A DNA stretch of 60,152 nucleotides from IMG/VR virus record IMGVR_UViG_3300034355_001008; one strand, 5' to 3'. Shown piece by piece: positions 11,960-47,866 of the stretch. The position numbers and the translations under genes were made by a program. The DNA comes from a virus (taxonomy: Duplodnaviria; Heunggongvirae; Uroviricota; Caudoviricetes). A model generated the notes under the pieces. That model had not been told where the DNA came from. It saw only the letters and a list, made by a program, of their open reading frames with translations, and made no database searches. Position 1 is the first letter of the stretch. The number at the start of each line of letters is the position of its first letter.

Positions 11960-12010
11960 TATAAATAGTTGTAGATCGCGGAATTGCAGTTCCCATCTAC
12001 TCTAATCATT
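11960..12010 (+). promoter_or_regulatory. Late promoter plus conserved structured leader, copy A
   Basis: TATAAATA; GTAGAT-CGC-GGAA-loop-TTCC-C-ATCTAC-TCTAATCATT. Confidence 0.8.
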
Positions 12011-12032
12011 CAACATTAATAAAGGAATTAAC

Positions 12033-12749
12033 ATGACCAGCACAAATACTTATACTGTTCAAACAGCACTTAACTTTTATATTTACGCATATATACGAGA
12101 AAAAGATTCAATAACTGCTAAAGCAGGAACTCCTTATTATATTGGAAAAGGATCAGGTAATAGAGCATATAGTAAACATCATTTTAAAATCCCATCAGAC
12201 AAATCTTTAATAGTTATAATTGAATCAAATTTAACTGAACTTGGAGCATTTGCCCTCGAAAGAAAATATATTAGATGGTTTGGTAGAAAAGATTTAAAAA
12301 CTGGAATTTTAATTAATTGCACTGATGGCGGTGATGGAATTTCCGGATTTAATCATTCGAATAAAACTAAAATGTTATTATCGGAAATAACTGCATCAAA
12401 AGAAATGCAATCAAAAATTAAAAACACCAAACGAATAAAATATAATAATGAAAATTTTAATAACATTAATAAAATACAATCTACTCTGCAAGAAAAATAT
12501 GGTGTTAATAATATTTCGCAATTAACTGAAACAAAAAATAAAAAGATAAAAAAGTCATTAGAAAAATATGGTGTTGATAATATTTCTAAATCTCCGGTAA
12601 TTAAAGAGAAAAAACGTCAAACATTATTAGAAAGAACTGGTTACGACCACCCACAAAAAATTCCATTTTTATCTGTAATAGAAAATAAAAAAACTTATAC
12701 TAAATCTATTGTAACTAGATATTATCCAGAATTTAAACAATATTATTGA
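12033..12749 (+). CDS. GIY-YIG-like homing endonuclease
   Basis: FYIYAY...[11 protein letters not shown]...ALERKYI...DGGDG; C-terminal KYGVxNIS repeats. Confidence 0.85.
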
Positions 12750-13331
12750 TTAAGAAGGGTAAAGTAACATAAGAGCGTCTAATATAACATCGTCTTGAGG
12801 GCGATGTTTAACAACCACATTTCGATCCCATGTTCCAGGATAAGTTTCTGGATTAATATCACAATAACCGCGAGTGGATTTAGTAGCAGCCAAATCAACA
12901 TATGTTCTCATATCTCGATAATTTGAATATTGCATAATTGGCTCATCGCCAGTTGCTTTACATAAACTATCTATAACAACCTGATCCAAACTGCCTCGAG
13001 TCCAGATTAACGTAGTTTTTGGGTCGCAATGAGAAGCAATATAATTTCTAATACAAGCAATTGCTTGTTTAGCTGGTAAATCTTTTTCACTTGGATAAAA
13101 ACTTTGTTTCTTAGCTAAATCACATTGTTTATTCCACCAAGTAATGGTATCTTTTTCGGTAACGCGATTGTATTGTTTAACTTGTTCTTTTACATTAAAT
13201 TTAACAAACAAGGTATTTGCATATAACGATTCCCATGTATTTTTTTCAGCGGGATTTAAATAAACAATAGCAGCAGATAAAATAACTGAATTAGATTCAG
13301 CTCCAAGCGTTTCTACATCATAGACCAACAT
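12750..13331 (-). CDS. dexA: DexA-like 3'-5' exonuclease
   Basis: YDVETLG, WW..Q, WTRGSLD, RDMRT, H...DDVILD (DEDDh). Confidence 0.8.
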   Translation of the reverse strand: MLVYDVETLGAESNSVILSAAIVYLNPAEKNTWESLYANTLFVKFNVKEQVKQYNRVTEKDTITWWNKQCDLAKKQSFYPSEKDLPAKQAIACIRNYIASHCDPKTTLIWTRGSLDQVVIDSLCKATGDEPIMQYSNYRDMRTYVDLAATKSTRGYCDINPETYPGTWDRNVVVKHRPQDDVILDALMLLYPS

Positions 13332-13345
13332 AATAACTCCAGAAA

Positions 13346-13813
13346 TTAAACACTATTATTTTTTTGTAATCTCGCTAAATCTCCATCCATCATAGAAAGT
13401 TTTTTAGTTCGTTGCGTATCTTTAATTAATTCGTTAATTAACAGAGAAGATAATTTAATCAATTCTTTTGTTTGAGGCTCATCTAATTGATTATTGTTAA
13501 ACCCATTAAGAAGTTTTCCATATTTTGCTAATGGCGTTTTTAATTTTGGGTTTGTATAATTTATTTTCATTTCTTTTTCTATTAATCTAAGGTGATAATA
13601 TTCCGGAGCATCTTTGATTTTAAGCGGAAATCCATTAGCATTCCATATAATTGGATAACGATAATTTCCAAACAAAACTACTCCTAAGATTTTATCATTA
13701 AGAGTATCGCTAATTTCAAATTTATGTCCAGCCGCAACCACTATAGTTTTATTTATAGTATCTGGAGTAATTAAATCGATAATTCTTTTAGAGGTGTTCA
13801 ATTTTAACTCCAT
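13346..13813 (-). CDS. Hypothetical protein
   Basis: 155-aa ORF coupled to neighbours. Confidence 0.65.
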   Translation of the reverse strand: MELKLNTSKRIIDLITPDTINKTIVVAAGHKFEISDTLNDKILGVVLFGNYRYPIIWNANGFPLKIKDAPEYYHLRLIEKEMKINYTNPKLKTPLAKYGKLLNGFNNNQLDEPQTKELIKLSSLLINELIKDTQRTKKLSMMDGDLARLQKNNSV

Positions 13814-14174
13814 CGTTATCCAAAAATGCTTTAAATAGATATTTTCTATCTTCTTTTTTAACTAAATTTAATTTAATAGCAATTTGAGTTGCAAACTGCC
13901 ATTTAATAAAGTAATCCGGTTTAGCAGTAATTAAAATATTAAACTCACCAATTCTAAACGCTACCATGTCGTCATCTGAATATGTTACATCAGCTCCGCA
14001 TTTAGAATCAACTGTATGCTCTGCTTCCCACTTTTCAATATTATCGACCAATATCATAATATCGATATCATTATACGGTTCTGTTGGACAAATATATTTA
14101 GAGCCTGTGTATAATACTTCTTTTGCTTCGGCAATTATTTGTTTAATATATTCTGGAAGATCTTCTTGAATCAT
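13788..14174 (-). CDS. Putative minimal nucleotidyltransferase-fold protein
   Basis: TGS...NDIDIMIL resembles the Pol-beta GS/DxD motif. Confidence 0.5.
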   Translation of the reverse strand: MIQEDLPEYIKQIIAEAKEVLYTGSKYICPTEPYNDIDIMILVDNIEKWEAEHTVDSKCGADVTYSDDDMVAFRIGEFNILITAKPDYFIKWQFATQIAIKLNLVKKEDRKYLFKAFLDNDGVKIEHL

Positions 14175-15472
14175 AATAAATCCTCTAATGAATTAGCTGT
14201 AGTTTTATCGTCTCTAATTCCATCAAAAATTGGTAAGAATAATGACTTTTTATCAGAGCCTTTGCTTGAAATAATACAGTTATATTTTACCTGAATGATT
14301 TTACCAACATATGATTCTGGATTATCGCGTTCGCCTTGTTTATGTTTAAATCCGCTACCAACATTCACTTCTAATTGACCGCATGAAGTTTGACAAAGCA
14401 ACGATCCAAGCATACCATCGAATTGAGTTCCAGGAGTTCCTAAAGTAAACCCAATCACTAACAAATCTACAGGATCTTCCGCTTTGAGCTTTAATTGATA
14501 CTTGGAGCGTTTTGCTTCCCAGATACCATTAATTGATTTGAGGATGCAACCTTCTTCGCCGCGATCTAAATTGCGTTGATATTTCTCCATTACTTCTTCA
14601 CGAGAATTAACAATTTCAGTTTCAACTAATTGTAATTTGTTATCAAAACTTGTTGATAATTCTTGTAAAGTAGCAAGTCTTTGGTTATATGGAATTTTAC
14701 TAACTTCTTTTAAAAAATCTTCATATGGAATGTAATCCCAAACAACAACATACAAACCTAATTCTTCTTCAGAAGTAATAGTTCCACGAACAGCTTTTGT
14801 TACATAACCATTTGATACTTTTCTTTCTGCTACTGTACCGTTTTGATGTAACCACATTAATTCACCATCAAGAATAAAACGATCTTTATTTGGTAGCGTT
14901 AAATTATCGAAACAAGAAATAGATAAAACGCTACCATTACGAGTTGTTGCTGATACAAATTTACCATCAGCAAATTCAAGGTTGATTCTTGATGAATCCA
15001 TTTTACACTGTAAGATCGCAGGATATTGGATATTTTTTTCAGTTTTTTCGTTGAATTTACCGCATAATAAAACAGGGTATTCTGGAATTAAATCTTTCCA
15101 AACTTTGTTAATTAGTTTAACGTTAACACCACATTTTAAATCGCGTTCAATAACTCGATATAAAACTTCTTGATCAAATTTCGTTAAATTATTTAATAGG
15201 CTACTAACGAATTCAATTGCAGCATTACCTGTTAATTTTCTATTCGCTATATTTTCAACCAATTCATTTAATGCTTTAGTTAAATCGCCTTTATGATATA
15301 CAGTAGAAAAGTAAGATGATTCTGAACGTTTTTTAATCCAAAATTTAATTCTAGGGTTATATGCTAATTCAAATACTAATCGTTTATCAGTATCATTTTT
15401 TGCTGATTCTAGGATAGCAAGTTTATCATTAGTGCTTGCAGTTTCAGCTAATAAGTTTAAAAAGTTTAACAT
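14171..15472 (-). CDS. gp30: ATP-dependent DNA ligase (T4 gp30-like)
   Basis: QCKMDSSR (variant of KxDGxR), ILDGEL, WDYIP, EEGCILK, KLK, OB-fold end SLFLPIFDGIRDDK. Confidence 0.93.
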   Translation of the reverse strand: MLNFLNLLAETASTNDKLAILESAKNDTDKRLVFELAYNPRIKFWIKKRSESSYFSTVYHKGDLTKALNELVENIANRKLTGNAAIEFVSSLLNNLTKFDQEVLYRVIERDLKCGVNVKLINKVWKDLIPEYPVLLCGKFNEKTEKNIQYPAILQCKMDSSRINLEFADGKFVSATTRNGSVLSISCFDNLTLPNKDRFILDGELMWLHQNGTVAERKVSNGYVTKAVRGTITSEEELGLYVVVWDYIPYEDFLKEVSKIPYNQRLATLQELSTSFDNKLQLVETEIVNSREEVMEKYQRNLDRGEEGCILKSINGIWEAKRSKYQLKLKAEDPVDLLVIGFTLGTPGTQFDGMLGSLLCQTSCGQLEVNVGSGFKHKQGERDNPESYVGKIIQVKYNCIISSKGSDKKSLFLPIFDGIRDDKTTANSLEDLL

Positions 15473-15528
15473 TTAATTATCCTCAAAATATTCATTATAG
15501 TTTATTATACTCTAAGAGTAATTTAATG

Positions 15529-16089
15529 TCAAGCACTTTCTTCATACCACGATGGAGTATTTCTACCATTTATTTTACCTTTCCAGCTAGCAATATGTCG
15601 TTTTTCTGTATTGTAATAGTTTCTATAGGATGCAATTGAATCCCCTGGAACAATACAATGAACTGGCATCGCAGGAGTCGGTTCAGTAAAAAGTTTTGTT
15701 GAAATATTAAATGGAGCATACTGTAATTTATCAACTAAACCAATTTGCTCGCATTTGTGTATTTTACCATAACGATAAGTGTATTCTTTACATAATTCCA
15801 CAAGTAAAGAATGAAGCCATTGATAATTTTCAAATCCATGGCGAACCCAAATAGCCGATGGGTGATTTATATGAGTTGCTGAATATAAAATATCGTCGTA
15901 AGAATTGTTAAGTTTCCATACTGTTTTTTTACGACCTGATGCAGAAAAACCTGCAGTTTCTACGCCATCTAGAACTCGATGAGCAGTAGAAAGCAACTGA
16001 CAATATTCTAAAATCATTTTAACAGCATGTTTGTCGACATGTTGCTGAGCGCATAATTTTTGATCATTATTAATGTAAAAAATATTCAT
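15529..16089 (-). CDS. Pyrimidine-dimer DNA glycosylase-like protein
   Basis: Likely start MNIFY at 16089; HVDKHAVKMILEYCQLLSTAH, THINHPSAIW, IASYRNYY. Confidence 0.75.
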   Translation of the reverse strand: MNIFYINNDQKLCAQQHVDKHAVKMILEYCQLLSTAHRVLDGVETAGFSASGRKKTVWKLNNSYDDILYSATHINHPSAIWVRHGFENYQWLHSLLVELCKEYTYRYGKIHKCEQIGLVDKLQYAPFNISTKLFTEPTPAMPVHCIVPGDSIASYRNYYNTEKRHIASWKGKINGRNTPSWYEESA

Positions 16090-16105
16090 AACAAACTCCA
16101 ATAAA

Positions 16106-16139
16106 AAAGGGCATACAGTTATTATACCGTATGCCCTTT
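16106..16139 (-). terminator. Terminator hairpin enclosing an early -10 box
   Basis: AAAGGGCATAC/GTATGCCCTTT 11-bp stem then T-run; TATAAT in the loop. Confidence 0.65.
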
Positions 16140-16155
16140 CTAATGTCAAGCACTT

Positions 16156-16428
16156 TTATTTAACGAATTCTCTTAACTGTACTGCAGTTAATAATCCGAC
16201 TTTTCTATTAATTTCTTCGCCATTTTCCACAACAATTAATGTAGGAACTCCACGAACTTTGTATTTAGCCGCTAATTCATAATCTTCATCAATGTCAATC
16301 TCTATGAGAGGAATCGCTGGTGGATTATTTTCAATAATTGATGTTAACACTTTACAAGGTGAGCACCAACTACTTTTAAAAACAATTAAAACTTTTTTAC
16401 TGTCTGTAATAACAAAATCTTTTGGCAT
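16156..16428 (-). CDS. Thioredoxin
   Basis: WCSPC active site, IDIDE, VRGVPTLI. Confidence 0.93.
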   Translation of the reverse strand: MPKDFVITDSKKVLIVFKSSWCSPCKVLTSIIENNPPAIPLIEIDIDEDYELAAKYKVRGVPTLIVVENGEEINRKVGLLTAVQLREFVK

Positions 16429-16441
16429 AAATTTTCCAAAT

Positions 16442-16498
16442 TATAAATAGTAAAAATGCTAGTCGCGGAACGCCACATTCCCACTAGCTCTAAACATT
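16442..16498 (+). promoter_or_regulatory. Late promoter plus conserved structured leader, copy C
   Basis: TATAAATA; GCTAGT-CGC-GGAA-loop-TTCC-C-ACTAGC-TCTAAACATT. Confidence 0.8.
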
Positions 16499-16524
16499 TC
16501 TAATATAATCTGAAGGAGACCATA

Positions 16525-17475
16525 ATGTCTAGCAATAATATTTATATCAATACTATTACAGAACTTTCTATTCAATCTCGCGGCGCAAATAAATATTTAA
16601 AATGGTATCTATCAATAATCGAAAGGGCACAAAATAGAAATTTAATCGATTATTTTGAACGTCATCATATAGTTCCCAGTTGTTTCTATATTAACAATAA
16701 AAGAAATACGAAAAACGGGTTTTTAACCAATAATCCAGAAAATATAAACAATTATATAGAATTAACTGCCGAAGAACATAAAGTAGTTCATTTGTTACTA
16801 ATAAAAATGTTTTCCCCTAAATTTATATTACACAAATCGTTAATATATTCAGCAATTAGAATGTCAAGCGATGCTCATGGTAATAGGATTAATAATAAAA
16901 CTTACGCTTGGTTACGAAAATTGCACTCTATTTCTATGTCAGGTAAAAATAACCCTTGTTATAATAGAATTTGGATAAATAACGGAATATCGCAGAAATA
17001 TATTTTATCCACAGAACCAATTTTAGATGGGTGGAATAAAGGTCAACTACTTAAAAATTTATCTAAAGAAAATAATCCAAACTATAAAAAGAAATGGATA
17101 AATAACGGAATTATAGAAAAATATGTAGAAGAAACTCATCAAATACCTAATGATTGGTATAAAGGTCGATTAAAATCTAAAATTCCTCCCTCCAGAACAG
17201 GAATGTCAAATTCTACAGAAACTCGTAAAAAGTTATCTTTAGCTATGACAGGGAAGAAAATGTCTAAAGAATTTTCTTCAATTTGTTCTGATAACCAATC
17301 AGAAGAATGGATTGTTATAGACCCATCCGGCAACTTTTTTAAAATTAAAAAATTAAATAATTTTTGTAAAAATAATAATTTAATTTATAGCACAGCTACG
17401 CAATCATATAGAAAAAATGAAATAACAACAACTGGAAAAAATGCTGGATGGAAATTTATTAAAATGAACTGTTAA
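16525..17475 (+). CDS. HNH-type homing endonuclease with WINNG and NUMOD3-like motifs
   Basis: ERHHIVP...LTAEEHKVVHLLL; two WINNG repeats; SxETRKKLS. Confidence 0.8.
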   Translation: MSSNNIYINTITELSIQSRGANKYLKWYLSIIERAQNRNLIDYFERHHIVPSCFYINNKRNTKNGFLTNNPENINNYIELTAEEHKVVHLLLIKMFSPKFILHKSLIYSAIRMSSDAHGNRINNKTYAWLRKLHSISMSGKNNPCYNRIWINNGISQKYILSTEPILDGWNKGQLLKNLSKENNPNYKKKWINNGIIEKYVEETHQIPNDWYKGRLKSKIPPSRTGMSNSTETRKKLSLAMTGKKMSKEFSSICSDNQSEEWIVIDPSGNFFKIKKLNNFCKNNNLIYSTATQSYRKNEITTTGKNAGWKFIKMNC

Positions 17476-17584
17476 AGTTTATTTGTATATTATATTACAA
17501 AATTAAATTATTAGCCATGTGTTTCCTTTAATTTAGTTAATAATGCATCAATATTATTTTCAATTAAAAAATTCATTTTTATCC

Positions 17585-17821
17585 TTAGTTAATTAAAATT
17601 GCATTAATTGGCATTTCTTCATCTTCTATATGATGTTCTGAAATAAACTCTCTAGCGCGTTTATCAAAATGACCTGCGCTTGGATTCCAATTAACAACAC
17701 CATAATCATTCCCTTCATCATCAATTGAATAGACAACTTCAGCATCAATTAATTCTGGTTGGTCACGTACTAATTCTTGTAAATTTTCTAAATATTCGCC
17801 TAATTTCATAATGTCTCTCAA
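17585..17821 (-). CDS. Hypothetical protein
   Basis: 78-aa ORF overlapping upstream stop. Confidence 0.6.
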   Translation of the reverse strand: MRDIMKLGEYLENLQELVRDQPELIDAEVVYSIDDEGNDYGVVNWNPSAGHFDKRAREFISEHHIEDEEMPINAILIN

Positions 17822-19080
17822 TTTAAAGTATTTTCAGCCCAAGCACGAACAAATTCTAAACGTTCTTGCTCTGGAGTTTCTAAGAAAGATTCTTTAGTGT
17901 AATTTTTTTGTATATGTTCACACAAAGAATAATATTCTTCATCAAAGTTTTGTTTATAATTACCACTAAAAATCAATTCTAATCTTTTAGTTCTAGCAAT
18001 AAACTTTGATGTTAAATAATATGGGGTTTTAAGTTTTAAAACAGTATCACTATCCAAATCATAAACAACATAGCCTTCTCGTTTGTAAGTTTTAACTTGT
18101 TCTAATATGTCATAAAACGAACCAGTAACAATATCTGGGCGCATTACACTCCATTTTTTAGCAATTCCATTTAATAGTTTTTGATTAACTTGTTTAGAAC
18201 CTTTAACTTTTTCGCGGCAACCAATTAAATATGCGCCAAAATTTTCTTTAATAATATGTGGATCATTTACATGTACAATTTCAAAACAAAATGTGTAGTC
18301 TTTATATAATTTAAGAATCTTTGACATTTTAGCTAATGGCAACATTTCTTTAGCCATTTCAATAAAATCGCTAGACAATGAACCAGTAGTAGAAACTAAA
18401 GGTTCATCATTGTACCAAGTAACAGCAGCCATAAAGCCATTAATTTTATCAATAGCCATAATTTTATGATCAAGTGGAATAGTTGTACCATTTTCTTTGT
18501 AATTAAAAATTTTAGTAAATGGATATTGTATGACGTTATCATCTTTGTCAGTAACTAAACCACGAGCATCAACTAAATCTGGATGCATGTTCCATAAATT
18601 ATCATAAAATACTTTGCGTTTGTATTTGTGTACAATTAAACCATTTTGTTCTTTTTTAGCTACAAAATCTTCGTAACGAATATCAGGTGCCAATTTAATT
18701 TCAAATCGATCAGTCATTTTTTTAATTGTTTCTGGAGAAACGCCATGGATATTTTCATTGCCGTGGCGATTTTCTACTATTAAACACGTTACTTGATAAT
18801 CATGTTCTTTGGCCATGTTAAAATATGGTTGCATTTCCCACTCTTGTGTGAACGTATTGTGGACAGCAATGTTATCAATAAATGGAGATTGTAGTGCGCG
18901 GTTAACTTCTGCTTGACACCACGCGTGACCAGCTTTAGATTTTTCTGGAGTCCAGTTATAATTACCATCTGCATCTGTGTGAAAATCATCAGCGGAAACA
19001 GCAAGGTTAACGTTTAATGATTTAATTAACGTAGATTTACCTGCGCCTGGAACGCCACGAATTAAAAATAACATTTTCAT
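17818..19080 (-). CDS. Polynucleotide kinase (AAA_33) fused to Rnl1-like RNA ligase
   Basis: Start MKMLF at 19080; GVPGAGKS P-loop; YPFTKIFNY, KINGF, FEIV, REGYV ligase motifs. Confidence 0.82.
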   Translation of the reverse strand: MKMLFLIRGVPGAGKSTLIKSLNVNLAVSADDFHTDADGNYNWTPEKSKAGHAWCQAEVNRALQSPFIDNIAVHNTFTQEWEMQPYFNMAKEHDYQVTCLIVENRHGNENIHGVSPETIKKMTDRFEIKLAPDIRYEDFVAKKEQNGLIVHKYKRKVFYDNLWNMHPDLVDARGLVTDKDDNVIQYPFTKIFNYKENGTTIPLDHKIMAIDKINGFMAAVTWYNDEPLVSTTGSLSSDFIEMAKEMLPLAKMSKILKLYKDYTFCFEIVHVNDPHIIKENFGAYLIGCREKVKGSKQVNQKLLNGIAKKWSVMRPDIVTGSFYDILEQVKTYKREGYVVYDLDSDTVLKLKTPYYLTSKFIARTKRLELIFSGNYKQNFDEEYYSLCEHIQKNYTKESFLETPEQERLEFVRAWAENTLN

Positions 19081-19093
19081 AATATAATTTCTC

Positions 19094-19728
19094 TTAACAA
19101 TTATTTGTATCAATACCTAAATAATTTTGATACCGTGTTTCTTTACCGCTTTCGCTATATTCTTTTTTTACCCAAAACCCAGCATAATCTTCGGTAAATA
19201 TACAATTTCCCTTATCGTCATATTCTTTACGCCACCAAAAACCTCTATCCATAGCTGCATAGAAAATAACATTCCCATATTTATCGCACTCAGTAATTAC
19301 TTCATTCATTTTAACTCCTTAAAAGTTCTACCTTTCGTAAAAAATTTTAATGGTTTTTTAAAGGTAATAACTTCAGTGGTTCCATTTTTAATATAACCAA
19401 TCATTTTAAATTTATCATTTGTTAGAAAATACGTGTGTAAAATATGCTCAGGAAAAGACTTGGTTGTTTCTAATACAGTAATCATAATATCCTCCAATTA
19501 GTATAAGTTATTATACTATACCAGAAATTTAATGTCAAGCATTTTTTATTTAAAATCTGCAGATACAATTAAAGATCTCCGATTATCATATTCAACAACA
19601 GCAATCGTTTTATTATTATCAGATAGATAAGTAACGGTATTCATATATCCGAAATATTTACCTTTCCAACCTCTATCTGTTAATTTTTTTTGCAAATCAA
19701 AATCAGAAAATTTAGTAGATTTTAACAT
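19094..19728 (-). CDS. Three small hypothetical ORFs (19094-19309, 19306-19497, 19546-19728)
   Basis: ORF track; co-oriented and closely packed. Confidence 0.55.
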
Positions 19729-20114
19729 TACGACTCCATTAAAATGACATAGACGATAACAAGATATGTTAAATAATGTAAATACTGATCACACCCTAAT
19801 TGAACCCAAAACTTTTTATCTGATACATCTGATAAACCGTAATGCGCTTTAAAATAATCAATAATATAATGAACGTTAATTTCAATGTATACAATTATGA
19901 ATAAAAGAATTGGATCTACAAATGGAAGTAATACTACGCCTGTCGCAAGACCTTGTTTGATACTATGTTTTGCTCCAGTAAAATTTCCAAATATACCTTT
20001 ACATTTTACTTCTTCGTATGTTTGATTGATAAAATCTATATAGAAATGTTTAGTAAACAAGAGAAAAAAACATATAAAAATTATATTATATTGATGCATT
20101 ATAAACTTTCCCAA
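19728..20114 (-). CDS. DUF3307-like membrane protein
   Basis: KHFYIDF...HYIIDYFK...FWVQLGCDQYLH. Confidence 0.7.
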   Translation of the reverse strand: MGKFIMHQYNIIFICFFLLFTKHFYIDFINQTYEEVKCKGIFGNFTGAKHSIKQGLATGVVLLPFVDPILLFIIVYIEINVHYIIDYFKAHYGLSDVSDKKFWVQLGCDQYLHYLTYLVIVYVILMES

Positions 20115-20323
20115 TCAACCCATTTTGTTAATTCAATATTAACTGCTTCGTGCGTAATATTACCATTATTATCATAACTTTCTGGAATATACACTGTAAT
20201 CCCATTTACTGCTGCACCAAAATCATACATTTCAACAGAAACATCAAGTTCTGCTGAATAACGTTTAAGCAGCTTTTTTAAATCTTGTTTAAATAGTTTT
20301 TCAATTATTTCAGTTTTTTCCAT
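20099..20323 (-). CDS. Hypothetical protein
   Basis: ORF track; GGAG-like RBS absent, AGGT present. Confidence 0.5.
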   Translation of the reverse strand: MEKTEIIEKLFKQDLKKLLKRYSAELDVSVEMYDFGAAVNGITVYIPESYDNNGNITHEAVNIELTKWVDWESL

Positions 20324-20342
20324 AGTACAACCTAAATTTAAT

Positions 20343-20393
20343 TATAAATAGTTGTAGATCGCGGGTTCCGACGCCCCATCTACTCTAAACATT
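20343..20393 (+). promoter_or_regulatory. Late promoter plus conserved structured leader, copy B
   Basis: TATAAATA; GTAGAT-CGC-GGGT-loop-GCCC-C-ATCTAC-TCTAAACATT. Confidence 0.8.
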
Positions 20394-20419
20394 TCGTACA
20401 ATATTCATGGAGAACATTA

Positions 20420-21253
20420 ATGTCCAGCACAAATACTTATATAAAACAAAAATCTTTTTACGTTTACGCTTATCTTAGATCAAAAGATTCAAAAACAGCT
20501 AAAGCAGGAACTCCGTATTACATCGGAAAAGGATCCGGTAATAGAGCATACGCAAAGCACGAAAAAATAAACTTACCAAAAGATAAATCTTTAATTTTTA
20601 TACTAGAATCAAATCTTACTGAAACTGGAGCTTTTGCTATTGAACGAAGATTAATTCGCTGGCATGGCAGAAAAGATTTAGGAACTGGAATTCTTTTAAA
20701 TCGAACAGATGGCGGCGAAGGAACTTCTGGAAAAAAAATGACAAATTTAAATAAAATAAAATTAAAACAAGGTTTGTTATTAGCTAAAAATAACCCAACA
20801 TCAAATTATAATAGCATTAAATCTAGAAAAAAACGATCAGAAGCAGCCAAAAAAATATGGAAAAACCCGCAATATAAACTAACAAAATCAAATAAAACTA
20901 AAAAACAATGGACAAATATTGAATATCGCAATTTTATGATAAAAAGTCAAACAGAATATTGGGGAAAACAAGATTCTAGAATTCTACAATCAAATAGAAT
21001 TAAAAAACAATGGGAAGACACAAATTTTAAAATTTTACAATCAAATAAAACTAAAAAACAATGGAAAGACCCAAATTTTAAAAATAAAGTAGAAAAACGT
21101 TTTATTATAATCGAACCTTCCGGAACAACATATTGCATACAAAATTTATGCTCTTTCTGTCAAGAAAATAATTTACGATATACATGCATGTCTAACGTCG
21201 CGCACAAAAGAGCTGCTCACCACAAAAAATGGAGATGTGAATTAATTCCATAA
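20420..21253 (+). CDS. GIY-YIG-like homing endonuclease
   Basis: N-terminus strongly resembles 12033..12749 ([26 protein letters not shown]); KKQW repeats. Confidence 0.85.
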
Positions 21254-21308
21254 GCCACCAAAAAATAAAAGGTGCCATAAAATAAGGCAACTAAAATAAA
21301 TTGCAATT

Positions 21309-21644
21309 TTAAAAAATAAAAGTTGCATCTTCCATGAAATACGCTTTTTCTTTAACATCATCGCTAACGTCGCTAAGATATAATCCCGAATATTTATTCC
21401 CTGAAATTAACTCTTTAAGATTATCTTTTAAAAATTTAGATGCAAATTGTGGATAATCTAATTCTTCTTTTTTGTCAATTTTATACATATATTCAACACA
21501 ACGCTCAATTCTTGATGCTTCTGATTGAATACTATCGTTGTTAAAAGGTTTATCTAATTTTTTTAATCTACCGAATGCAACTACAGTAAATGCTTGTTCT
21601 AATCCATCAACTGATGGTCTTTTAATTTCTGCTGTTTTTTTCAT
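21309..21644 (-). CDS. Hypothetical protein
   Basis: 111-aa ORF with AGGA RBS. Confidence 0.6.
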   Translation of the reverse strand: MKKTAEIKRPSVDGLEQAFTVVAFGRLKKLDKPFNNDSIQSEASRIERCVEYMYKIDKKEELDYPQFASKFLKDNLKELISGNKYSGLYLSDVSDDVKEKAYFMEDATFIF

Positions 21645-21755
21645 GATATATTCCTAGGCTTTATTGATTTTGTGTTTAAAATGATAGACTGTCAACCAAA
21701 CTGTTGATGCTATTAAAATACCAGATATGATTGCTATTAAAATCATATAATCACC

Positions 21756-22298: not shown

Positions 22299-22549
22299 TA
22301 TATAATTCCTCAATAAGTTTAAAGTTACGGTACAGTTATATTATACTAGATTAGACATATTATGTCAAGCACTTTTTAAATATTTATTTTTTGTGCATAT
22401 GAAATTAAGTGGAGAATTCCCGCTGCAGCGAATAAACCACAAATAGAAACGATAGCAAAACTAAAAATTAATCCCACGATATAATACACAACATATAACA
22501 TTGTTTGAGATGATTCTTTCATAAAAATTCCATAAATTTTATGTACAAA

Positions 22550-22571
22550 AAAAGCCTGCGAACAGGCTTTT
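22550..22571. terminator. Intrinsic terminator
   Basis: AAAAGCCTG-CGAA-CAGGCTTTT with flanking A/T runs. Confidence 0.8.
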
Positions 22572-40288: not shown

Positions 40289-40305
40289 TATTTAATTCCT
40301 AATAA

Positions 40306-41328
40306 TTATTTTTCGTAAATAGCTGATACACAGTTGCGACAAATAGTATCATATGAATTTTGAATCATTTGTTGATGTTCTAGCTTTCCCCAAAAATCTG
40401 CTAATTCATGAGTAGATAAATCTCCAGCAATATTTTCCATATCATAATCATTACAACACAAAAATACTTTACCTATAGAATTAATATGTAACCATCCTAC
40501 TGGTCTACCGCCAATTTCTGGTTCATAATTACAGCCAATAACTCGTTTTTCTGCATTATTATTTTTTAAACGGGTATCAATTACATGTTTATTTGTAATT
40601 ACTTCCGATAAATTTCCAGCTCTATCAATTAAAAAAGAAAATGGATATATTTGTGTATTAGGAAACATTTTTTTAGCAATTTCTAATTGAGTAGCAAGTT
40701 CTCCACTATCAACATCTAAATCCATGTCTACCGGAAAATCTGGTCCTTTATCTAACCAACCACCAAGACCGCTGAATGAATTATTGTTTGCTCCATTAAG
40801 CCGTATTAATAATTTATTAGAAAACTCTTTTGTTGCATATTCAAGGTTTGAAATTAACTTATCAAATAATTTTGGATTCATTCCGCTACGTTTACTCCAA
40901 ACATCTCGCTCAAATGCAGGAATGTTTAAGTGTATACCATTAACTGCATTGCCGTATTTTTTAATTAAATCCACTTTGTCTGGAGTTAAAGGAGTTCCAT
41001 TAGATAACAACATAAAAGATATCTCATATTGCTCACATAATTGCAATAATCTTTCTAAATGAGGATATAATAAAATTTCATTATAATGCGAAGTATAAAA
41101 CCACCGAAAATCTTTACTTACTAATCCATCTTGTTTATCTCTTTCAGAAATAATATTTTTAATTATTTTTTCAAGTAACTCTGGACTCATTACTGCTCGA
41201 CCTTCTGCAGGATTTCCTTGATACTTAACAGGACAAAACCAACATCTAGCGTTACATACGCCATATGGATCTAATTGTAAATTTTTGATTTTATGTTTGT
41301 TAAATTCTTCCGCTATATTGGCAATCAC
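40306..41328 (-). CDS. Radical SAM protein with SPASM/twitch-like C-terminus
   Basis: CNARCWFC motif; SNGTPL; GC...GKVFLCCND...CRNC. Confidence 0.9.
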   Translation of the reverse strand: MIANIAEEFNKHKIKNLQLDPYGVCNARCWFCPVKYQGNPAEGRAVMSPELLEKIIKNIISERDKQDGLVSKDFRWFYTSHYNEILLYPHLERLLQLCEQYEISFMLLSNGTPLTPDKVDLIKKYGNAVNGIHLNIPAFERDVWSKRSGMNPKLFDKLISNLEYATKEFSNKLLIRLNGANNNSFSGLGGWLDKGPDFPVDMDLDVDSGELATQLEIAKKMFPNTQIYPFSFLIDRAGNLSEVITNKHVIDTRLKNNNAEKRVIGCNYEPEIGGRPVGWLHINSIGKVFLCCNDYDMENIAGDLSTHELADFWGKLEHQQMIQNSYDTICRNCVSAIYEK

Positions 41329-41548
41329 GTGTATTCCTTGAAATTAATTGTATAACTTATTATACTCTACATAGTAAAATTTGTCAAGCACTTTTTAAAT
41401 CTTTTTTTGCTCGTTCTAAAGCCGCATCCATAATGCCCATTGTATTAGGTAAATCCAAATCATTTGCCACCATCATATCTTTGGCTAATTGCAGTGCAGC
41501 TACCAATTCTTCTACTAAGGTTTTCTCGTTTGACATTATTTCCTCCGA

Positions 41549-42228
41549 TTACCAACTATTTTCAGTTATTTCTCTATGACATTCCGCGATAATTAACCTA
41601 GCAAACTGCTCTAAATCGTTTAATGTCAAATATCCGCGTTCTTGATAAGAGGGATGTATCCAGTTATCATCCCCAGTTTCTACCCATCCAGCTTGTTCAG
41701 CTAATTCTTTAATTTTCTGATTCATCTTGTAAAAACGTCCTCCATATTGCTTCTTGATAGTCGCCAGTTCCCTGTATTAGATTGCCATTATCAATTGCTT
41801 GGTAAATACTCATACAACGCCTAACGATATCTTCACCGAATTTTAACATTTCTTTTTCGGTATATAAATCTAATGGATTATCTTTATATTGATAATCTAC
41901 CGCAAAAGGATTTGGTAAATAATTTTTAATTTTCTGATTCATCAAGCAAACCATAATGTTTTTTAACTTCTTGTTCGATAGTTCTAGCAACACTTGTTCC
42001 TGCTTCATATCGCACTTCGTCTAAAACAAAACACAAAACATCTTCGATAACCAGCTTAACCAAAGAACTTAATTCGTCATCAAAATCTGCATCATCAGTT
42101 AATGATGTATCCCATACTTCAATCAATTCTAATATTTTTTTATTCATTTGATATAACTCCAACTTAACGGTTGGCGAATTAACCGCTATTTTCATTCGTT
42201 CTAAATCGTAATTAAATGTTTCTGTCAT
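41549..42228 (-). CDS. Three tandem related small ORFs (41549-41725 manual, 41709-41942, 41926-42228)
   Basis: MNQKIKELAE / MNQKIKNY / MNKKILEL segments; two end DESEN overlapping next ATG. Confidence 0.65.
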
Positions 42229-42551
42229 AATAATTTTTCAACGTGACCAACTTCATAAATTTCAATACTTTCTATTGTATGAAAACCATATTCGGTTACA
42301 GGAAGAAAATCCCAAAATATATCAAGAACTTCTTCGTCGTGATCAACCGTTTCCTTGTCTACATATACATCATATGCATGTTCACCATCATCACAATTTT
42401 CGTTATAATTGAAATTATGATAGCTTGAATTAGATTTAATCTTTTGAATTAAAGGCATTATAATCGCTAATGTTTCGTCGGTGATTGCAGTTAAATTACT
42501 TGCATAATCACCATCATTCATGTCTACTTTTACTAACATATAATTTGCCAT
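42225..42551 (-). CDS. Acidic hypothetical protein
   Basis: 108-aa ORF. Confidence 0.6.
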   Translation of the reverse strand: MANYMLVKVDMNDGDYASNLTAITDETLAIIMPLIQKIKSNSSYHNFNYNENCDDGEHAYDVYVDKETVDHDEEVLDIFWDFLPVTEYGFHTIESIEIYEVGHVEKLL

Positions 42552-42563
42552 TTCTCGATCCTA

Positions 42564-43289
42564 TTAGTACGTTAATCCCAATGCTTTTCTACCAGGAGTT
42601 AAATAATCTTTTTCTTTTAAAGTTTTATAAGTGTGACAACATCCACATAAAGTTTGTAAATTTTCCCCTGCATTATTTGAAGGATTTCCATCTATATGAT
42701 CAACTTCTAATTGACTAGATAACATAATAGTGGTAGTGCAACGAAAACCCAATCTACTATCAACATTTTCGCAATATGTTTTTAATGCCCAACGGTATGG
42801 ATGTAATGCATTTCTACGTTCCAGAGCATTAGCGTATCCTTCATTAACGGCTAACTCTTCTTTTTTAAATGTGGCATATTCAGCATAATTTTGAAAACCA
42901 TTTTCAATTGCTAATTGTTCGTTTAAAACTGTGCGATATTCAGCATAATTTTGAAAACCATTTTCAATTGCTAATTGTTCGTTTAATGCATTTCTGCGAT
43001 CTGCTGCTGATTTAAATCCGGTTTTCACGGCTAATTCTTCTTTTTTAAATGCAGCATATTCAGCATAATTTTCAAAACCAGCCTCAATGGCTAATTGTTC
43101 GTTTAAAACTGCGCGATATTCAGCATAATTTTCAAAACCAGCCTCAATGGCATTTTCTTCTCGTTGCCGTTCCGCTATTTTATTATGATGAGATTTACAA
43201 AAGTTACGATAGATTGTGTTACCATTTCGCTGTTTACCAGCTGTTGCTCTATGATTTTCACAACCTTCTATTGTACATAATTTAGTCAT
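42564..43289 (-). CDS. HNH endonuclease with six 20-aa repeats
   Basis: LEVDHIDGNPSNN...NLQTLCGCCHTYKT; N-terminal Cys/His motif; repeats at residues 43-162. Confidence 0.85.
   Translation of the reverse strand: MTKLCTIEGCENHRATAGKQRNGNTIYRNFCKSHHNKIAERQREENAIEAGFENYAEYRAVLNEQLAIEAGFENYAEYAAFKKEELAVKTGFKSAADRRNALNEQLAIENGFQNYAEYRTVLNEQLAIENGFQNYAEYATFKKEELAVNEGYANALERRNALHPYRWALKTYCENVDSRLGFRCTTTIMLSSQLEVDHIDGNPSNNAGENLQTLCGCCHTYKTLKEKDYLTPGRKALGLTY
42804..43163 (-). repeat. 60-nt tandem repeats in a 180-nt higher-order unit
   Basis: ATATTCAGCATAATTTT(G/C)AAAACCA recurs four times on the + strand. Confidence 0.85.
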
Positions 43290-43298
43290 TTTTCTCTC

Positions 43299-46200
43299 CT
43301 AGTTTACTGAACATTTTGCTGAATAACCTAATAAACCGTCCTGTAACTCACGCTCAATAGCAGGCTTATTTTTTTCTATGTAAAACTCACATTCCGCATA
43401 GGTATCGAACTGCATAATGGTTACTTCTGGAGTTCCGTTCGCTATTTGCGCGGAAGTAAAATACATCATTAATGTTAACACTGCACCCATTTTTATCTCT
43501 CCTAGTTAATTAGTATAACTTATTATACTCGACTGCATGCAGTATGTCAAGCACTTTGTTAAATTTTATTCATTTGGTATCGCAATTAAATGACAATGTT
43601 GCGTTCTAGGTAAATTTTTTTCGCATTCATTAATTAATGTATCGCGTTGATATACTAAATGCCAAAACCCATAAATCATCAACAAAATTAGTAATGCCAA
43701 GGCATATAAAGCATTATTATTTTTCATTCGTCTATCTCAATAATTCTAACTTTGCGGTCTTTTGCCGCCTTTCTTGCTTTGTGTGCATTAATTGTTTCTC
43801 TAGCTCTATTTTCAAACCATGACGAAGCATGACCGTTTTCATTGTCTAAGCCTACCCAAAACAAACCCCACAATTTATATTGCGGAAAATATTCTACAGA
43901 AAGTTCGCCGGAATAAATGTATTCCGGTTTTTCTAAAATTCTATATCTACTCACCTAAGTACGCCCAAAAGTTGTTATGAATAGACATTAAAGCATCGCT
44001 ATTTAAATACATTGTACTTTCTTGATTTCTTGGATCGCTATGTAAACTTACTATTTGATTTGATACAGTTCTAATATCTAGGACATAAAATTTAATCCCA
44101 CCATCAGCAGTTAGTGGTTGTAAAATCATCGATGTTATTTTATCCGCTGCTAATATAATATCAGCGTCCTTGCATGGAATTCGTATTCTATTTTGACTCA
44201 TAGCCTTTTTTCTCCAATAATTCTAGGAATGTTTTTTTCTCGCAGCCGCCTAAACCGTCCATATCCTGACCAACTTGCCAAACGTTTACGTTTTTCCATA
44301 GGGCGATAACTAAGTTAAAATCATTTTGGTCTAATTCATATAATAACTTTTGGGCTTTCTTGATTACTCGGTCAGTTCGATTAAAAGAACCGCTCTTCCA
44401 GTCGCGTGTTTTGACCTTCATAGTCAAATTAATGGCATTAACTTGACACACGCTCAGGGCGATTACAGGACCGAAATCTTGGTAAAGTTCATTGTATATT
44501 CGTTGATGATTCATTTATATCTCCGGTTAATTAAGTATAAGTTATTATACTTTACGCAGTAAAGTTTGTCAAGCACTTTCGCGTAAGTTATTATTCACCA
44601 ACCACCCTCAAAATTTGGTGGAGGGTCAAATTCATTAGTAATGAATTCTCTCATAGTACGGCTTTTAATCATCAGTTTTTCACCATCAGCGTTGTAGGCA
44701 ATCCAGTCTTTACCATATATTATTTTTCGACCTCTTACAGTATCAATCACCCAGTCTAACTCAAGTATTTTCCTTGGGTCACCTAATCCATTTGAAATAA
44801 CACCATCTGGTATTTTATCTTCATCAGGGAGAAATTGCTCTATTTTAATTGCTTTAAATTGACTCATTACTTTATCGCCCTCATTACAATTTTCTTTTTT
44901 AAGTTTGTATATTTGGCATTCCAGCTGTTTAACATAAACATATATTGAATGCGGCACTTTAAAATGCTCTGATAATTTAGTTTCTAAATTTGTGCAGGAT
45001 ATAAAATATGAGGATGCCATTATTTTCTCCAATTTTTATACGCGTCTATACAACTATCAAACTCGACTCCATAGATCTCATATTGAGCCTGACAGAACGA
45101 TTGAATATGAATAGGTAACTTAGTATCCTGTTTTGCAGTTAACTCGATAAACCGAAATGCAAGCGAAATTATCAAACAAAAATAAACAAAGGTTAACGCT
45201 ATATATGCAATTCTCATGTTATTGTATCATGTATAAATTGGTTTCCATATTTTCCGGTTCGTTATTATTTAAACATAAGTAATGCAATGTGTGTAAAGTT
45301 CCAACAATTTTTTGTTACTAAAACTGCGCAGGTTAATTAAATCGCCTAGTTCGCCACAATCTTCTAATTGTATATACAAATCAGAACTTAATATTGCATC
45401 GATAATTAAATCTCTCATTTTCCCCTCCGCTATTTTGGAAACGCTTTCAGGACGGCACTGGGTTTTCACCAGTAACTGTGGTCAGCAGTATGGTATCCCG
45501 ATTAGTCCAGACCATAGGAACCACCCTACTCGCCAAACTATCGTTAAGCTGGAATCGTTTACCAGCAAAGCCGTCCTGAAAGCGTTTCGTTTAATTTAAT
45601 TATGATTCATTATACCTTATCCGCTATAACAAAGCAAGCACTTTTTACTTAATTTTCTCGTAAATGTGATAACAATACACGACCTCGATTTCTGGTTCAT
45701 CATAAATGTATTCAGTGGTAGGCGTTTGTGTACCTATATAATCACCCCATTTATGCCATCTCCAACCTTCATATCTAGGTTGACCAGATTTAGTGATTTT
45801 ATGCAATAACACTACGAATTCGCGCTCTGTGGACGTTAATTCAGGGATGACTTCAAGTAAATTTTCAATTCCATCACAAACACCGTAATACCACGCAGCA
45901 TCATTTGTTAGGAATTCGGGATCTTTAATATATGAGTTAGAACGCTCAAGCGCATATAACTGAAATGAATAATAACTTAGATAAACACCCTCTTGTAATT
46001 CAAGTTCTTGGATAATCGGGTTACTTTTTAACATTTTTCCTCCAAATTTATTCCGGCTCGAATCATTCTTTTTTGAGCCCATGAAAGGATTGCACATTTT
46101 TCCCAATACTGCGCTCCAGCGTCGTCTAACATTTTGTTAAACCTATTGAACGCTATTTTCTTTCCTTTCTTTGTATAGGCTGAAATAAACATACGGATAA

Positions 46201-46967
46201 CATATTCAACATTATCGCCTAACCATTCTTGACTTCTATCGCGTTTATTCATGTTTATTTAACGTGTCCGCAACGTTTCCAATCTGCATAAGTAGAATAA
46301 TCATTAAATACAACATAATCACCAGCATTTGCGTTTACATAATGATTTAATATTTTTCTAACGATACCGTTAGGAAACGCCTGTTTTGCCGCATATCTAG
46401 TGTTAAAATAATTCATTTTTCATCTCTCCGGTTTCAATTAAGTATGATTCATTATACTTTACTGCGTAAAGAATGTCAAGCACTTTCTACTAAAGTTAAA
46501 TCACTTTCCCAAAAAATAAGCAACACCCACTCCAAAAGGATTGTTATCTAATACCAATCCCAATCGTCCGCTTGGGCGTTCAACAATTGACGAGATAGCA
46601 CCGTATGGTAATGTTTCTATTGCCGCTACCACGCCCACATACGTTCCTTTATGTAATCCAGTCAAGGTTACGCTAACTCTATCGCCAATTTTAAACATAA
46701 TCAAACCTCCGCGCTGTTTAACATTTCATACATAAAACGGCAATCAGCAGGACCAAAGCAACCAGTAACATAAGATACATATAGGCTTTGCCAATCGGAA
46801 TTTAACTCGCTTTTGCAGTCTAACATCCCCGCGATATGATAACTAAACGGTTGGTCGTCATTTTCGTAATACGCAATCACCTCGGCGATTAAGGATAAAT
46901 CATTCATTTGTTTCTCCTCTATTAAGTATGATTCATTATACCTTATCCGCTCGAACAAAGCAAGCAC
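43299..46967 (-). CDS. Run of small hypothetical early ORFs
   Basis: 43299-43490, 43724-43954, 43947-44201, 44188-44514, 44595-45032, 45020-45217, 45269-45469, 45645-46106, 46028-46252, 46501-46704, 46701-46905; interspersed early promoters. Confidence 0.55.
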
Positions 46968-46978
46968 TTTATTAAATT

Positions 46979-47048
46979 TATAAATACTTTTTTTCTTCCA
47001 TAAAAAAAGCTAGTCGCGGACTCTGACATCCCACTAGCACTAATCATT
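46979..47048 (+). promoter_or_regulatory. Late promoter plus conserved structured leader, copy D
   Basis: TATAAATA; GCTAGT-CGC-GGA-loop-TCC-C-ACTAGC-ACTAATCATT. Confidence 0.8.
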
Positions 47049-47065
47049 CTTTCTAGGAGTTACCT

Positions 47066-47866
47066 ATGACCAGCACAAGTATATATTCAATCTACAAATT
47101 CACAAATAAAATAAATTCAAAATCGTATATCGGAAAAACAATCGATATTCCTACGCGATATTCTAAACATAAAAAAATTGCTGAATCTGGTTTAGGTTTT
47201 GCTATTCATAATGCAATAAGAAAATATGGTATCGATAATTTTACGTTTGAAATTATTTTTCAGGCAAACAATACCTTGATAACTGAAAAAACATTTACTG
47301 ATATTTTTGAGAATTATTTTATAAAAGAATGTCGTTCACATGTTACCGAGCATGGTTATAACTTAACATGGGGTGGTGAAGGTTTTGATAAAGAGTCACA
47401 AAAATTCTACGCTGATAAACGAACTGCAGAGGGCAAGAATCCATTTTCAGGCGGAATGATACAATCTAAAAAACAACAAGAATTAGTTATGTTAGGCGAA
47501 CATAATTTTCAGGGCAGTAAAATGAATGAATATATGTTATTAAATAATATTCATCCATCACAGAATTCTGAGAATTGTGAACGTATTTCTATTAGAGAAA
47601 AACAAAAGATTGCTAATGGAACACACGTATTTCAGTCAGAAAAATTTAAAAAGAATCAAAGTAAAATACAACACGAATTAGTCGCGTCTGGTAAACACCA
47701 TTTGTTAAGTGGCGAAATACAATCTAAAAGCAATAAAACTAGATTAGAAAAAGGAGAACACCCATCGCAATTTAGGGTTTGTTGTTTATATTGTCAAAAA
47801 GAAACTGACTTACCAAATCATAAAAGATGGCACGGTTCAAACTGCAAAAAAGCAGGCGGGAGTTAA
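47066..47866 (+). CDS. GIY-YIG homing endonuclease
   Basis: SIYKFTNKINSKSYIGKT, HNAIRKYG.DNF.FEII, ENYFI, GYNLTWGGEG; G.H.FQ-like repeats. Confidence 0.88.
   Translation: MTSTSIYSIYKFTNKINSKSYIGKTIDIPTRYSKHKKIAESGLGFAIHNAIRKYGIDNFTFEIIFQANNTLITEKTFTDIFENYFIKECRSHVTEHGYNLTWGGEGFDKESQKFYADKRTAEGKNPFSGGMIQSKKQQELVMLGEHNFQGSKMNEYMLLNNIHPSQNSENCERISIREKQKIANGTHVFQSEKFKKNQSKIQHELVASGKHHLLSGEIQSKSNKTRLEKGEHPSQFRVCCLYCQKETDLPNHKRWHGSNCKKAGGS

Follow-up and report, generated by a model that had tools for sequence, protein, structure and literature searches.

Homing endonuclease genes (HEGs) face a dilemma, in that the enzyme must be expressed enough to spread but too little to harm the phage. Their established controls comprise only promoter choice, hairpins that mask the ribosome-binding site (RBS), and autorepression by I-TevI. 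The masking hairpins of T-even phages, which accompany late promoters at I-TevI, I-TevII, I-TevIII, segB, and Aeh1 mobE, form on the sense strand (PMC2988022). For metagenomic loci, Dassa et al. 2009, in work on 'fractured genes' in GOS, reported hairpins in 15 of 16 5' untranslated regions (UTRs), ten of them with TATAAATA, as well as two mutually complementary conserved motifs (PMC2677866). Antisense transcription has been described in cyanophage S-PM2, in which the RNA CfrI was detected; it arises 57 nt into F-CphI, a homing endonuclease gene, and extends in antisense across the start of that gene (Millard et al. 2010, as cited in PMC2984593 and PMC5931967). Here we analysed a stretch of 60,152 nucleotides from a T4-like lake-water phage (IMG/VR record IMGVR_UViG_3300034355_001008; hereafter the window), in which four nuclease genes of different families share an upstream control module of two hairpins. 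The helices of this module proved to be built for the strand opposite the nuclease gene, and we propose that they may belong to a cis-antisense RNA directed against the nuclease message.

Four nuclease genes share an upstream module

Relatives of the window phage include two T4-like members of the Kyanoviridae, Methylophilales phage Melnitz and Pelagibacter phage HTVC008M. Its four endonuclease genes on the + strand have their ATG at 12033, 16525, 20420, and 47066, and each is preceded by TATAAATA, a hairpin (HP1), and CTAAWCATT. The last of these pairs with the start region of the gene to give a second helix (HP2) around the Shine-Dalgarno sequence (SD). The features of the four copies are as follows.

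11960-11967, + strand: copy 1 forward late-promoter-like TATAAATA, 3 nt before HP1
11971-12000: copy 1 HP1, made of the 6-bp stem P1, a bulged C, a G:C pair, a bulged C, the stem P2, and the loop; both strands fold equally
12002-12040: copy 1 HP2, CTAATCATT with ATGACCAG, SD and ATG enclosed; sense 0.0 kcal/mol (no fold), antisense -6.9 kcal/mol
12047-12054, - strand: copy 1 TACTTATA in HEG1 codons 5-8, minus-strand reading TATAAGTA; candidate reverse late promoter or 3' arm of a closing helix
12033-12749, + strand: HEG1, Seg-like YxYAY GIY-YIG-type nuclease with DUF7487
16442-16449, + strand: copy 2 forward TATAAATA, 8 nt before HP1
16458-16488: copy 2 HP1
16490-16532: copy 2 HP2, CTAAACATT with ATGTCTAG
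16539-16546, - strand: copy 2 exact TATAAATA within HEG2 codons 5-8
16525-17475, + strand: HEG2, HNH-type homing endonuclease
20343-20350, + strand: copy 3 forward TATAAATA, 3 nt before HP1
20354-20383: copy 3 HP1
20385-20427: copy 3 HP2, CTAAACATT with ATGTCCAG; sense -3.1 kcal/mol, antisense -10.2 kcal/mol
20434-20441, - strand: copy 3 TACTTATA, minus-strand reading TATAAGTA
20420-21253, + strand: HEG3, Seg-like YxYAY GIY-YIG-type nuclease
46979-46986, + strand: copy 4 forward TATAAATA, 22 nt before HP1
47002-47008, - strand: copy 4 A7 run adjoining P1, which gives the antisense strand a terminator-like U7 tract directly after HP1
47009-47038: copy 4 HP1
47040-47073: copy 4 HP2, CTAATCATT with ATGACCAG; sense -3.0 kcal/mol, antisense -6.7 kcal/mol
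47080-47087, - strand: copy 4 TATATATT in HEG4 codons 5-8, minus-strand reading AATATATA
47066-47866, + strand: HEG4, classical GIY-YIG nuclease (PF01541)

A preliminary description of this DNA had reported a covarying RNA leader ahead of four endonucleases, and its elements, coordinates, P2 sequences, and common N-terminus were all recovered. P1 reads GTAGAT/ATCTAC in copy 1 (11971-11976/11995-12000) and copy 3 (20354-20359/20378-20383), and GCTAGT/ACTAGC in copy 2 (16458-16463/16483-16488) and copy 4 (47009-47014/47033-47038). All four copies share the motif CGCGG...CCC and the tail (T/A)CTAA(T/A)CATT, with CTAA(T/A)CATT beginning at 12002, 16490, 20385, and 47040. The family assignments also held: HEG4 (P0004) is a GIY-YIG protein (PF01541), HEG2 (P0002) matches a PHROG of HNH-type homing endonucleases, and a Seg-like domain, YxYAY...GTPYYIGKG, is common to HEG1 (P0001) and HEG3 (P0003). 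The proteins begin MTSTNTY (HEG1), MSSNNIY (HEG2), MSSTNTY (HEG3), and MTSTSIY (HEG4), which fit the pattern M-x-S-x-x-(I/T)-Y.

By itself the TATAAATA octamer is not enriched in the AT-rich window (9 observed vs 14.8 expected). Its sites at 11960, 16442, 20343, and 46979 are four of the five occurrences on the + strand. The combined module pattern is not expected by chance and was absent from shuffled sequences. A covariance model built for leader searches (R1) found no fifth copy in the window.

The module recurs in uncultured phages

Approximately 118 unique copies of the module were collected from uncultured phage contigs, where the genes that follow it encode nucleases of GIY-YIG-like, HNH, and other types. 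In IMG/VR, scanning for the exact pattern yielded 90 loci with 51 unique copies, and all but three of the matches have ATG-NNN-AG 15-35 nt downstream together with an open reading frame (ORF) starting M-x-S-x-x-(I/T)-Y. Among the 51 unique copies the ORFs comprise 38 GIY-YIG-like proteins of several subtypes, 10 HNH proteins, and 3 others. The earlier idea of a portable module was right in that unrelated nuclease domains are joined to it, but there is more to the module than a hairpin in an mRNA leader. R1 recovered additional copies that deviate at letters supposed to be 'invariant'. We also fetched 80 IMG/VR loci through the YxYAY protein family alone, a sample unbiased with respect to the RNA, and R1 matched immediately upstream of the gene in 60 of them. 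Most of the ~118 copies are preceded by a forward promoter, NATAAATA or CTAAATA, usually 3-5 nt from P1.

The leader matched no known RNA family: Rfam 15 gave no match at the four window sites at gathering scores and, with permissive filters, nothing with E <= 1 at the leaders of three relatives (L003, L029, and L013). A conserved, multi-copy module with such strong covariation is missing from Rfam. R1 had no match in the cultured phages Melnitz-3 or HTVC008M. It likewise found no leader in five cultured cyanophages that carry nuclease homologues, the sole match being in S-SRM01 (16.8 bits, E = 0.48) and distant from the homologue. Megablast and blastn against cultured phages returned nothing relevant. 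Scanning 185,579 prokaryote species genomes with the pattern gave 44 matches but a single true leader, L306. The 5143 bp contig that carries L306 (CAZYEM010000283.1) is binned as an uncultured Bacteroides metagenome-assembled genome and is probably a mis-binned phage fragment.

Both helices covary

The module occurs in a long form, as in the window, and a short form, which differ in HP2. For HP1, RNAalifold and pair counts on the long-form alignment of 51 unique IMG/VR copies showed 97% of cells paired, with compensatory changes at 7 of 11 pairs and no one-sided changes. None of 500 shuffles matched the observed covariation, and the signal was lost when the partner column was slid. In the short form (39 copies, found via protein rather than motif) compensatory changes affect 10 of 11 pairs. 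These results bear out the earlier claim of selection on structure. What had been described as a CGC/C internal loop contains two Cs that indeed never vary, but it is really made up of two separate bulges of one C each, with a G:C pair between them, and this pair covaries to A:U. The G:C pair adjacent to the bulged Cs is invariant in every copy, both stems and the pair between the bulges covary, and the loop is free.

These features raise the question, already posed by the riboregulator of the preliminary description, of whether HP1 binds a protein of the phage or its host that co-regulates all leader-bearing nuclease mRNAs, a role that could coexist with any other reading. Invariant bulged Cs with an adjacent G:C pair, covarying stems, and a free loop are typical of sequence-specific recognition within a structural frame. 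However, we consider such a site very unlikely, given that no candidate protein is known, that autoregulation through a shared domain is improbable across unrelated nuclease families, and that the bulges could just as well be conserved for the antisense strand, where they might be bulged Gs of a terminator. Other readings and pairings were set aside. A tRNA-like minihelix is contradicted by variable loops that do not resemble T-loops, by the bulged stem, and by the lack of any tRNA call from ARAGORN or Rfam. A riboswitch or ribozyme has no Rfam support and would not fit the variable loop. A pseudoknot of the P2 loop (UGG) with CCAGC was inconsistent among copies by eye, and pairing of CAGC with GCGG of HP1 showed no covariation with the A11 variants.

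HP2 forms when CUAAWCAUU pairs with AUGWCCAG. Its long-form W:W pair was U:A in 22 copies, A:U in 26, and A·C in the other 3; U·U and A·A did not occur. In an unsupervised mutual-information scan this pair ranked just below the pairs of P1, and the scan also revealed an inner helix beside the SD. A targeted scan for G or C at the W position of the leader found one true copy, L176, in which G stands opposite C in ATGCCC. The short form is ordered as promoter, ~5 nt, HP1, N-CUAA, a 4-5-nt arm, a loop bearing AAGG, an arm over the 3' half of GGAG, YCAGC, and AUG. Its arms form four or five covarying pairs (for example, CACU/AGUG, UGCU/AGCA, CGCU/AGCG, CAUU/AAUG, and AAAC/GUUU). The base of HP2 is the invariant CUAA paired with YCAG, as supported by L199 (C:G to U:A) and by CUAG variants (A·C to G:C).

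HP2 includes the start codon in the long form and the 3' half of the SD in the short form. The short form is ancestral, and the long form is the same helix in which the AUG of the 3' arm (AAUG) has turned into the start codon and the loop has been enlarged for a new SD. The old AUG position reads ACA, AAU, and others in the long form. The preliminary description had the hairpin leaving the RBS free, which is true of HP1 itself but not of the CTAAWCATT tail, which pairs with the start-codon region. On the sense strand, RNAfold gave the CTAA..AGC segment no extra stability relative to shuffles (mean z = -0.08).

The helices fit the strand opposite the nuclease gene

Non-Watson-Crick cells on the gene strand are nearly all A·C, which correspond to G·U on the opposite strand. 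Counts of A·C versus G·U cells on the gene strand were 10 vs 0 in P1, 29 vs 0 in short-form P3, and 93 vs 0 in long-form P4, although these cell counts overstate the number of independent events because many copies are related. The short HP2 with its base has 76% of cells paired in the sense direction and 98% in the antisense direction, and the long P4 has 73% and 94%, respectively. Mean RNAfold energies of the CTAA..CAGC segment were -2.3 kcal/mol (sense) and -7.4 kcal/mol (antisense), and in 93 of 101 copies it was the antisense direction that gave the stabler fold (p = 4e-17). The wobble asymmetry and the folding energies both show helices that are built for the antisense strand and not for that of the nuclease gene. 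The initial view of a simple mRNA leader hairpin is not supported as it stood: a second covarying helix lies over the ATG or SD, and wobble asymmetry and energies both favour the opposite strand.

Two further features are apparent on the antisense strand. The antisense HP2 hairpin has the SD complement CUCC in or beside its loop. The tail after HP1 is rich in U, with a mean of 5.4 U in 9 nt versus a background of 2.9. In 11 of the 32 copies lacking an abutting forward promoter, 8 of 9 nt are U. These include HEG4, with U7 from 47008 to 47002.

A reverse promoter-like element lies inside the reading frame

The motif TATTTAT, just inside the nuclease gene, is the reverse complement of the late-promoter core. 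TAYWTAY occurs 5 nt past CAGC in 76 of 107 copies. In the antisense direction the element reads ATAAATA in 58. This 5-nt spacing mirrors the usual 3-5 nt gap between the forward promoter and P1. TATTTA is retained out of frame in L257, L240, and L190. Leaderless homologues in cultured cyanophages begin MNYYTYAY, without TATTTAT. Since the motif is kept in another frame and is missing from the leaderless homologues, it is a nucleic-acid element rather than a protein motif.

Module letters account for the N-terminus that the unrelated nucleases have in common. M comes from the AUG of the stem, residue 2 from the covarying W followed by CC, and S from the AGC of the CAGC base. After the 5-nt spacer, x-(I/T)-Y corresponds to NNT-AYT-TAT, and codon 5 ends in T in 49 of 50 copies despite a varying amino acid. 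The shared N-terminal peptide is thus a by-product of nucleotide constraint. The module is a case in which RNA or DNA constraint imposes a common N-terminal peptide on unrelated proteins.

Six copies (L090, L061, L018, L076, L063, and L086) have no nearby TATAAATA and instead carry GTCAAGCA or TATATGTAAAG ~10 nt upstream of HP1. The reverse element in the same six tends toward TATATATA. They may represent a second promoter class.

A predicted antisense RNA and a sense-strand alternative

We propose that a portable cassette carries each nuclease gene as its cargo and that the first ~95 bp would act as a two-strand control module. On the gene strand, a T4-type late promoter NATAAATA is followed by ~3-5 nt, HP1, one nt, HP2, five nt, and TATTTAT. 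In this proposal TATTTAT would be a second late promoter opposing the first; the activity of both promoters is predicted from their sequences. The antisense RNA would start at the base of the complementary helix HP2', with its 5' end opposite the C of CAGC, and would end with HP1' plus the U-rich tail. It could then pair with the nuclease mRNA over the SD and AUG, and convergent transcription may contribute interference. Together, pairing and interference would keep a potentially toxic nuclease low in late infection, and HP1 of the mRNA, at or near its 5' end, may stabilise the message. On balance, we see even chances that the face-to-face late promoters yield a nuclease mRNA and a ~75-95-nt cis-antisense RNA masking the SD and AUG. 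The predicted RNAs in the window are the following.

20343-20428, - strand: predicted cis-antisense RNA of copy 3, based on the folds, U-rich tail, and reverse element
about 11960-12041, - strand: predicted equivalent in copy 1
about 16450-16533, - strand: predicted equivalent in copy 2
about 47002-47074, - strand: predicted equivalent in copy 4

Several observations weigh against this proposal. HP1 folds equally well on either strand, with mean RNAfold energies of -9.7 (sense) and -10.1 kcal/mol (antisense) and 96-97% and 98% of cells paired, respectively, and a terminator role gives no explanation for its invariant bulged Cs. In promoter-adjacent copies the U-rich tail is broken and begins 3-5 nt past the stem, making a poor intrinsic terminator. 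A simple terminator scan flagged HP1 on neither strand. The reverse element is off consensus in ~45% of copies (ATAAGTA in 23, ATATATA in 16, and GTAAATA in 10). Finally, the inverted repeat made by the promoter and TATTTAT can be read as a closing helix too.

That closing helix is central to a sense-only alternative, a translational mask of the T4 type. In read-through RNA the transcribed promoter NAUAAAUA would pair with UAUUUAU past the start codon, closing a three-way junction (P0, HP1, and HP2) over the SD and AUG. Transcripts from the gene's own late promoter would lack the 5' arm and hence be translated, with HP1 as a 5'-terminal stabiliser. TATTTAT is the exact reverse complement of the promoter and the linkers on the two sides are symmetric at ~5 nt, one copy pairs TATAAGTA with TACTTAT, and the flanking position covaries, being paired in 64% of cases versus 44% in shuffles (0 of 500 shuffles reached the observed value). 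If P0 is scored as present when 5 or more promoter bases are paired, the RNAfold minimum-energy fold contains it in 5 of the 19 copies with an adjacent promoter. The logic is established for I-TevI, segB, and mobE (PMC2988022), and Dassa et al. placed hairpins including TATAAATA upstream of metagenomic homing endonucleases (PMC2677866).

However, the mask would rely on a sense HP2 that is no stabler than shuffles, as given above. Extension by the promoter adds just 0.6-0.9 kcal/mol to the opening of the translation initiation region, and in the short form this is not significant relative to a shuffled extension. The mismatches are A·C rather than G·U, the wrong direction for a sense RNA, and TATTTAT is retained where the forward promoter is 8-22 nt off or missing. 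Moreover, the window genes are antisense to their neighbours and have no obvious source of sense read-through. For these reasons we regard the sense mask as unlikely. An inner extension of P0 was also considered and rejected, as it showed no covariation.

If the antisense RNA is real, antisense restraint would join the known controls of homing endonucleases. It would possibly give a functional context to CfrI, the sole antisense RNA seen at a phage homing endonuclease gene. The module would also provide a sequence signature for locating free-standing endonuclease genes in viral metagenomes.

The module moves with its gene

Comparison with empty sites, which the preliminary description had suggested, showed that HEG2 and HEG3 are polymorphic in presence between conserved genes of close relatives. 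Syntenic relatives with flanks 84-99% identical lack these two genes, and the pieces gained or lost are delimited as follows.

about 20324-21247, + strand: HEG3 cassette, absent in L094, L096, L098, and L106, with TTCCATA at both junctions
16429-17584 (edges about +/-20 nt), + strand: HEG2 cassette, absent in L093-L096, L098, L101, and L102

At the empty sites the promoter, leader, and ORF are absent together, and they move as one unit. The module had been suspected of marking the end of an undescribed mobile element, and it does form the 5' edge of a mobile unit, given that the relatives with empty sites lack promoter, leader, and ORF. Other nuclease-like insertions occupy other sites in relatives. 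R1 found no leader at a nuclease-like gene of relatives that is co-oriented with its neighbours (L094 7005-7910), or at the window's own co-oriented HNH gene (42564-43289).

The cassettes closely adjoin divergent genes. The missing HEG3 piece starts directly after the start codon of the divergent neighbour, and the neighbour's start codon lies 11-19 nt beyond the forward TATAAATA of the cassette at three sites (16426-16449, 20321-20350, and 46965-46986). The RBS of the neighbour differs at the empty site, and the left edge of the cassette brings a replacement on the minus strand, for example GGAAAA or AGGT.

This arrangement bears on whether the antisense-strand structure serves the neighbours instead, either as an outward late promoter with a structured 5' leader for the displaced gene or as a terminator, insulator, or processing domain in antisense read-through, thereby lowering the cost of insertion and favouring retention of the cassette. 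The strand evidence is identical to that for the antisense RNA, divergent neighbours in the window start this near the forward promoter with an RBS from the cassette edge, and 61 of 92 copies have a divergent gene upstream. In T4, seg and mob genes embed promoters of their neighbours (PMC2988022). Nevertheless, the upstream neighbour is co-oriented in 30 of the 92 copies by a crude ORF-based heuristic, and the U-rich tract after HP1' would end the transcript short of the neighbour. A late promoter would not restore early or middle expression, and many neighbours own perfect sigma-70-type promoters. A role for the neighbours would also leave unexplained the complementarity of the hairpin to the nuclease SD and AUG in both forms. 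We therefore consider such a role quite unlikely.

We also put forward a broader proposal, to which we attach a little less than even confidence. The modules may constitute a large undescribed family of portable cassettes in T4-like phages of lakes and oceans. Each would have two facing late promoters ~70-95 bp apart that yield a nuclease mRNA and a structured cis-antisense RNA. The latter would be a brake resembling a type I antitoxin. It would move together with its homing endonuclease and would have been joined by recombination to nucleases of unrelated families, and a start codon would even have shifted into the helix that the antisense RNA targets.

Other features of the region were recorded alongside the cassettes. 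The window encodes a tmRNA and four tRNAs. The tmRNA is a permuted two-piece form at 11300-11686 on the minus strand (RF04321, 135 bits; RF01850, 133 bits). It lies on the other strand from the HEG1 cassette, a short way upstream of it, and the reverse promoter-like element of HEG1 points at the tmRNA. Three perfect sigma-70 consensus promoters (TTGACA-17-TATAAT, 12/12) stand on the minus strand before individual early-region genes, at 19510-19538, 16121-16149, and 15504-15532. In close relatives, L094:6813-8451 (also L093 and L106) contains a gene for a 301-aa Zn-finger, PD-(D/E)xK-like nuclease that runs in the same direction as the genes beside it; the window has nothing at the corresponding site. 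The nuclease gene has no R1 leader, and it stands between a short ORF and a long ORF, each of which starts with a near-duplicate MNIFYIN... sequence. The Pnk-Rnl fusion gene of L106 and L107 lacks a stretch matching window positions 17834-18692, and L100 has a ~2.4 kb insertion near the start of the Pnk-Rnl gene. This RNA-repair gene is thus a rearrangement site in its own right.

Comparison with known systems

The module resembles the T-even masks in having a late promoter just upstream, an RNA helix involving the SD or AUG, late and low nuclease expression as the presumed outcome, and both GIY-YIG and HNH genes as partners. The T-even masks are single, very stable sense hairpins over the RBS, whereas the module has a weak sense helix with mismatches compatible with the antisense strand. 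It further differs in its extra conserved hairpin with invariant bulges and in the inverted promoter core inside the ORF. A classical T4-type mask does occur on the same protein family: in Synechococcus phage Sf-CH5 (L262:1070-1200), a leaderless homologue bears a long hairpin, GTAGTCTGGGGA...TCCCCAGACTAC, whose loop holds TATAAATA and whose 3' arm abuts the ATG. In Aeromonas phage 25, a very stable hairpin is predicted just upstream of the seg-type gene seg43(25) with the RBS uncovered (PMC2988022). HP1 likewise leaves the RBS clear, a likeness by description to a prediction in one phage (PMC2988022).

The loci of Dassa et al. are similar in being metagenomic, T4-like, and associated with GIY-YIG and other endonucleases (PMC2677866). 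The hairpins were read there as sense structures that sequester the RBS, without analysis of covariation or strand (PMC2677866). They may be this module, or one related to it, observed at an earlier date. CfrI, annotated at NC_006820 136544-136741 on the minus strand, is a cis-antisense RNA detected in a T4-like phage. It begins within the first codons of F-CphI, which is a free-standing HEG, and covers both the start codon and the 5' UTR of this gene; TATAAATA precedes F-CphI as it does the nuclease genes here. CfrI differs in being ~200 nt long, in extending into psbA, and in belonging to a single locus rather than a portable multi-copy cassette. With filters off, R1 scored 11.9 bits (E = 0.08) at the F-CphI start, where the psbA terminator is followed by TATAAATA and neither HP1 nor HP2 was found. 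The CfrI locus and the module are not homologous.

In IS10 RNA-OUT/RNA-IN, SymR/symE, and Sok/hok, a short antisense RNA with a stable fold faces the 5' UTR and start codon of a gene whose product can harm DNA or the cell. By analogy, the module would share with them face-to-face promoters and a loop complementary to the translation initiation region of the target. It differs in that its antisense RNA is only predicted, both promoters would be of the same phage late class, the nuclease families are unrelated, and there is no sequence similarity.

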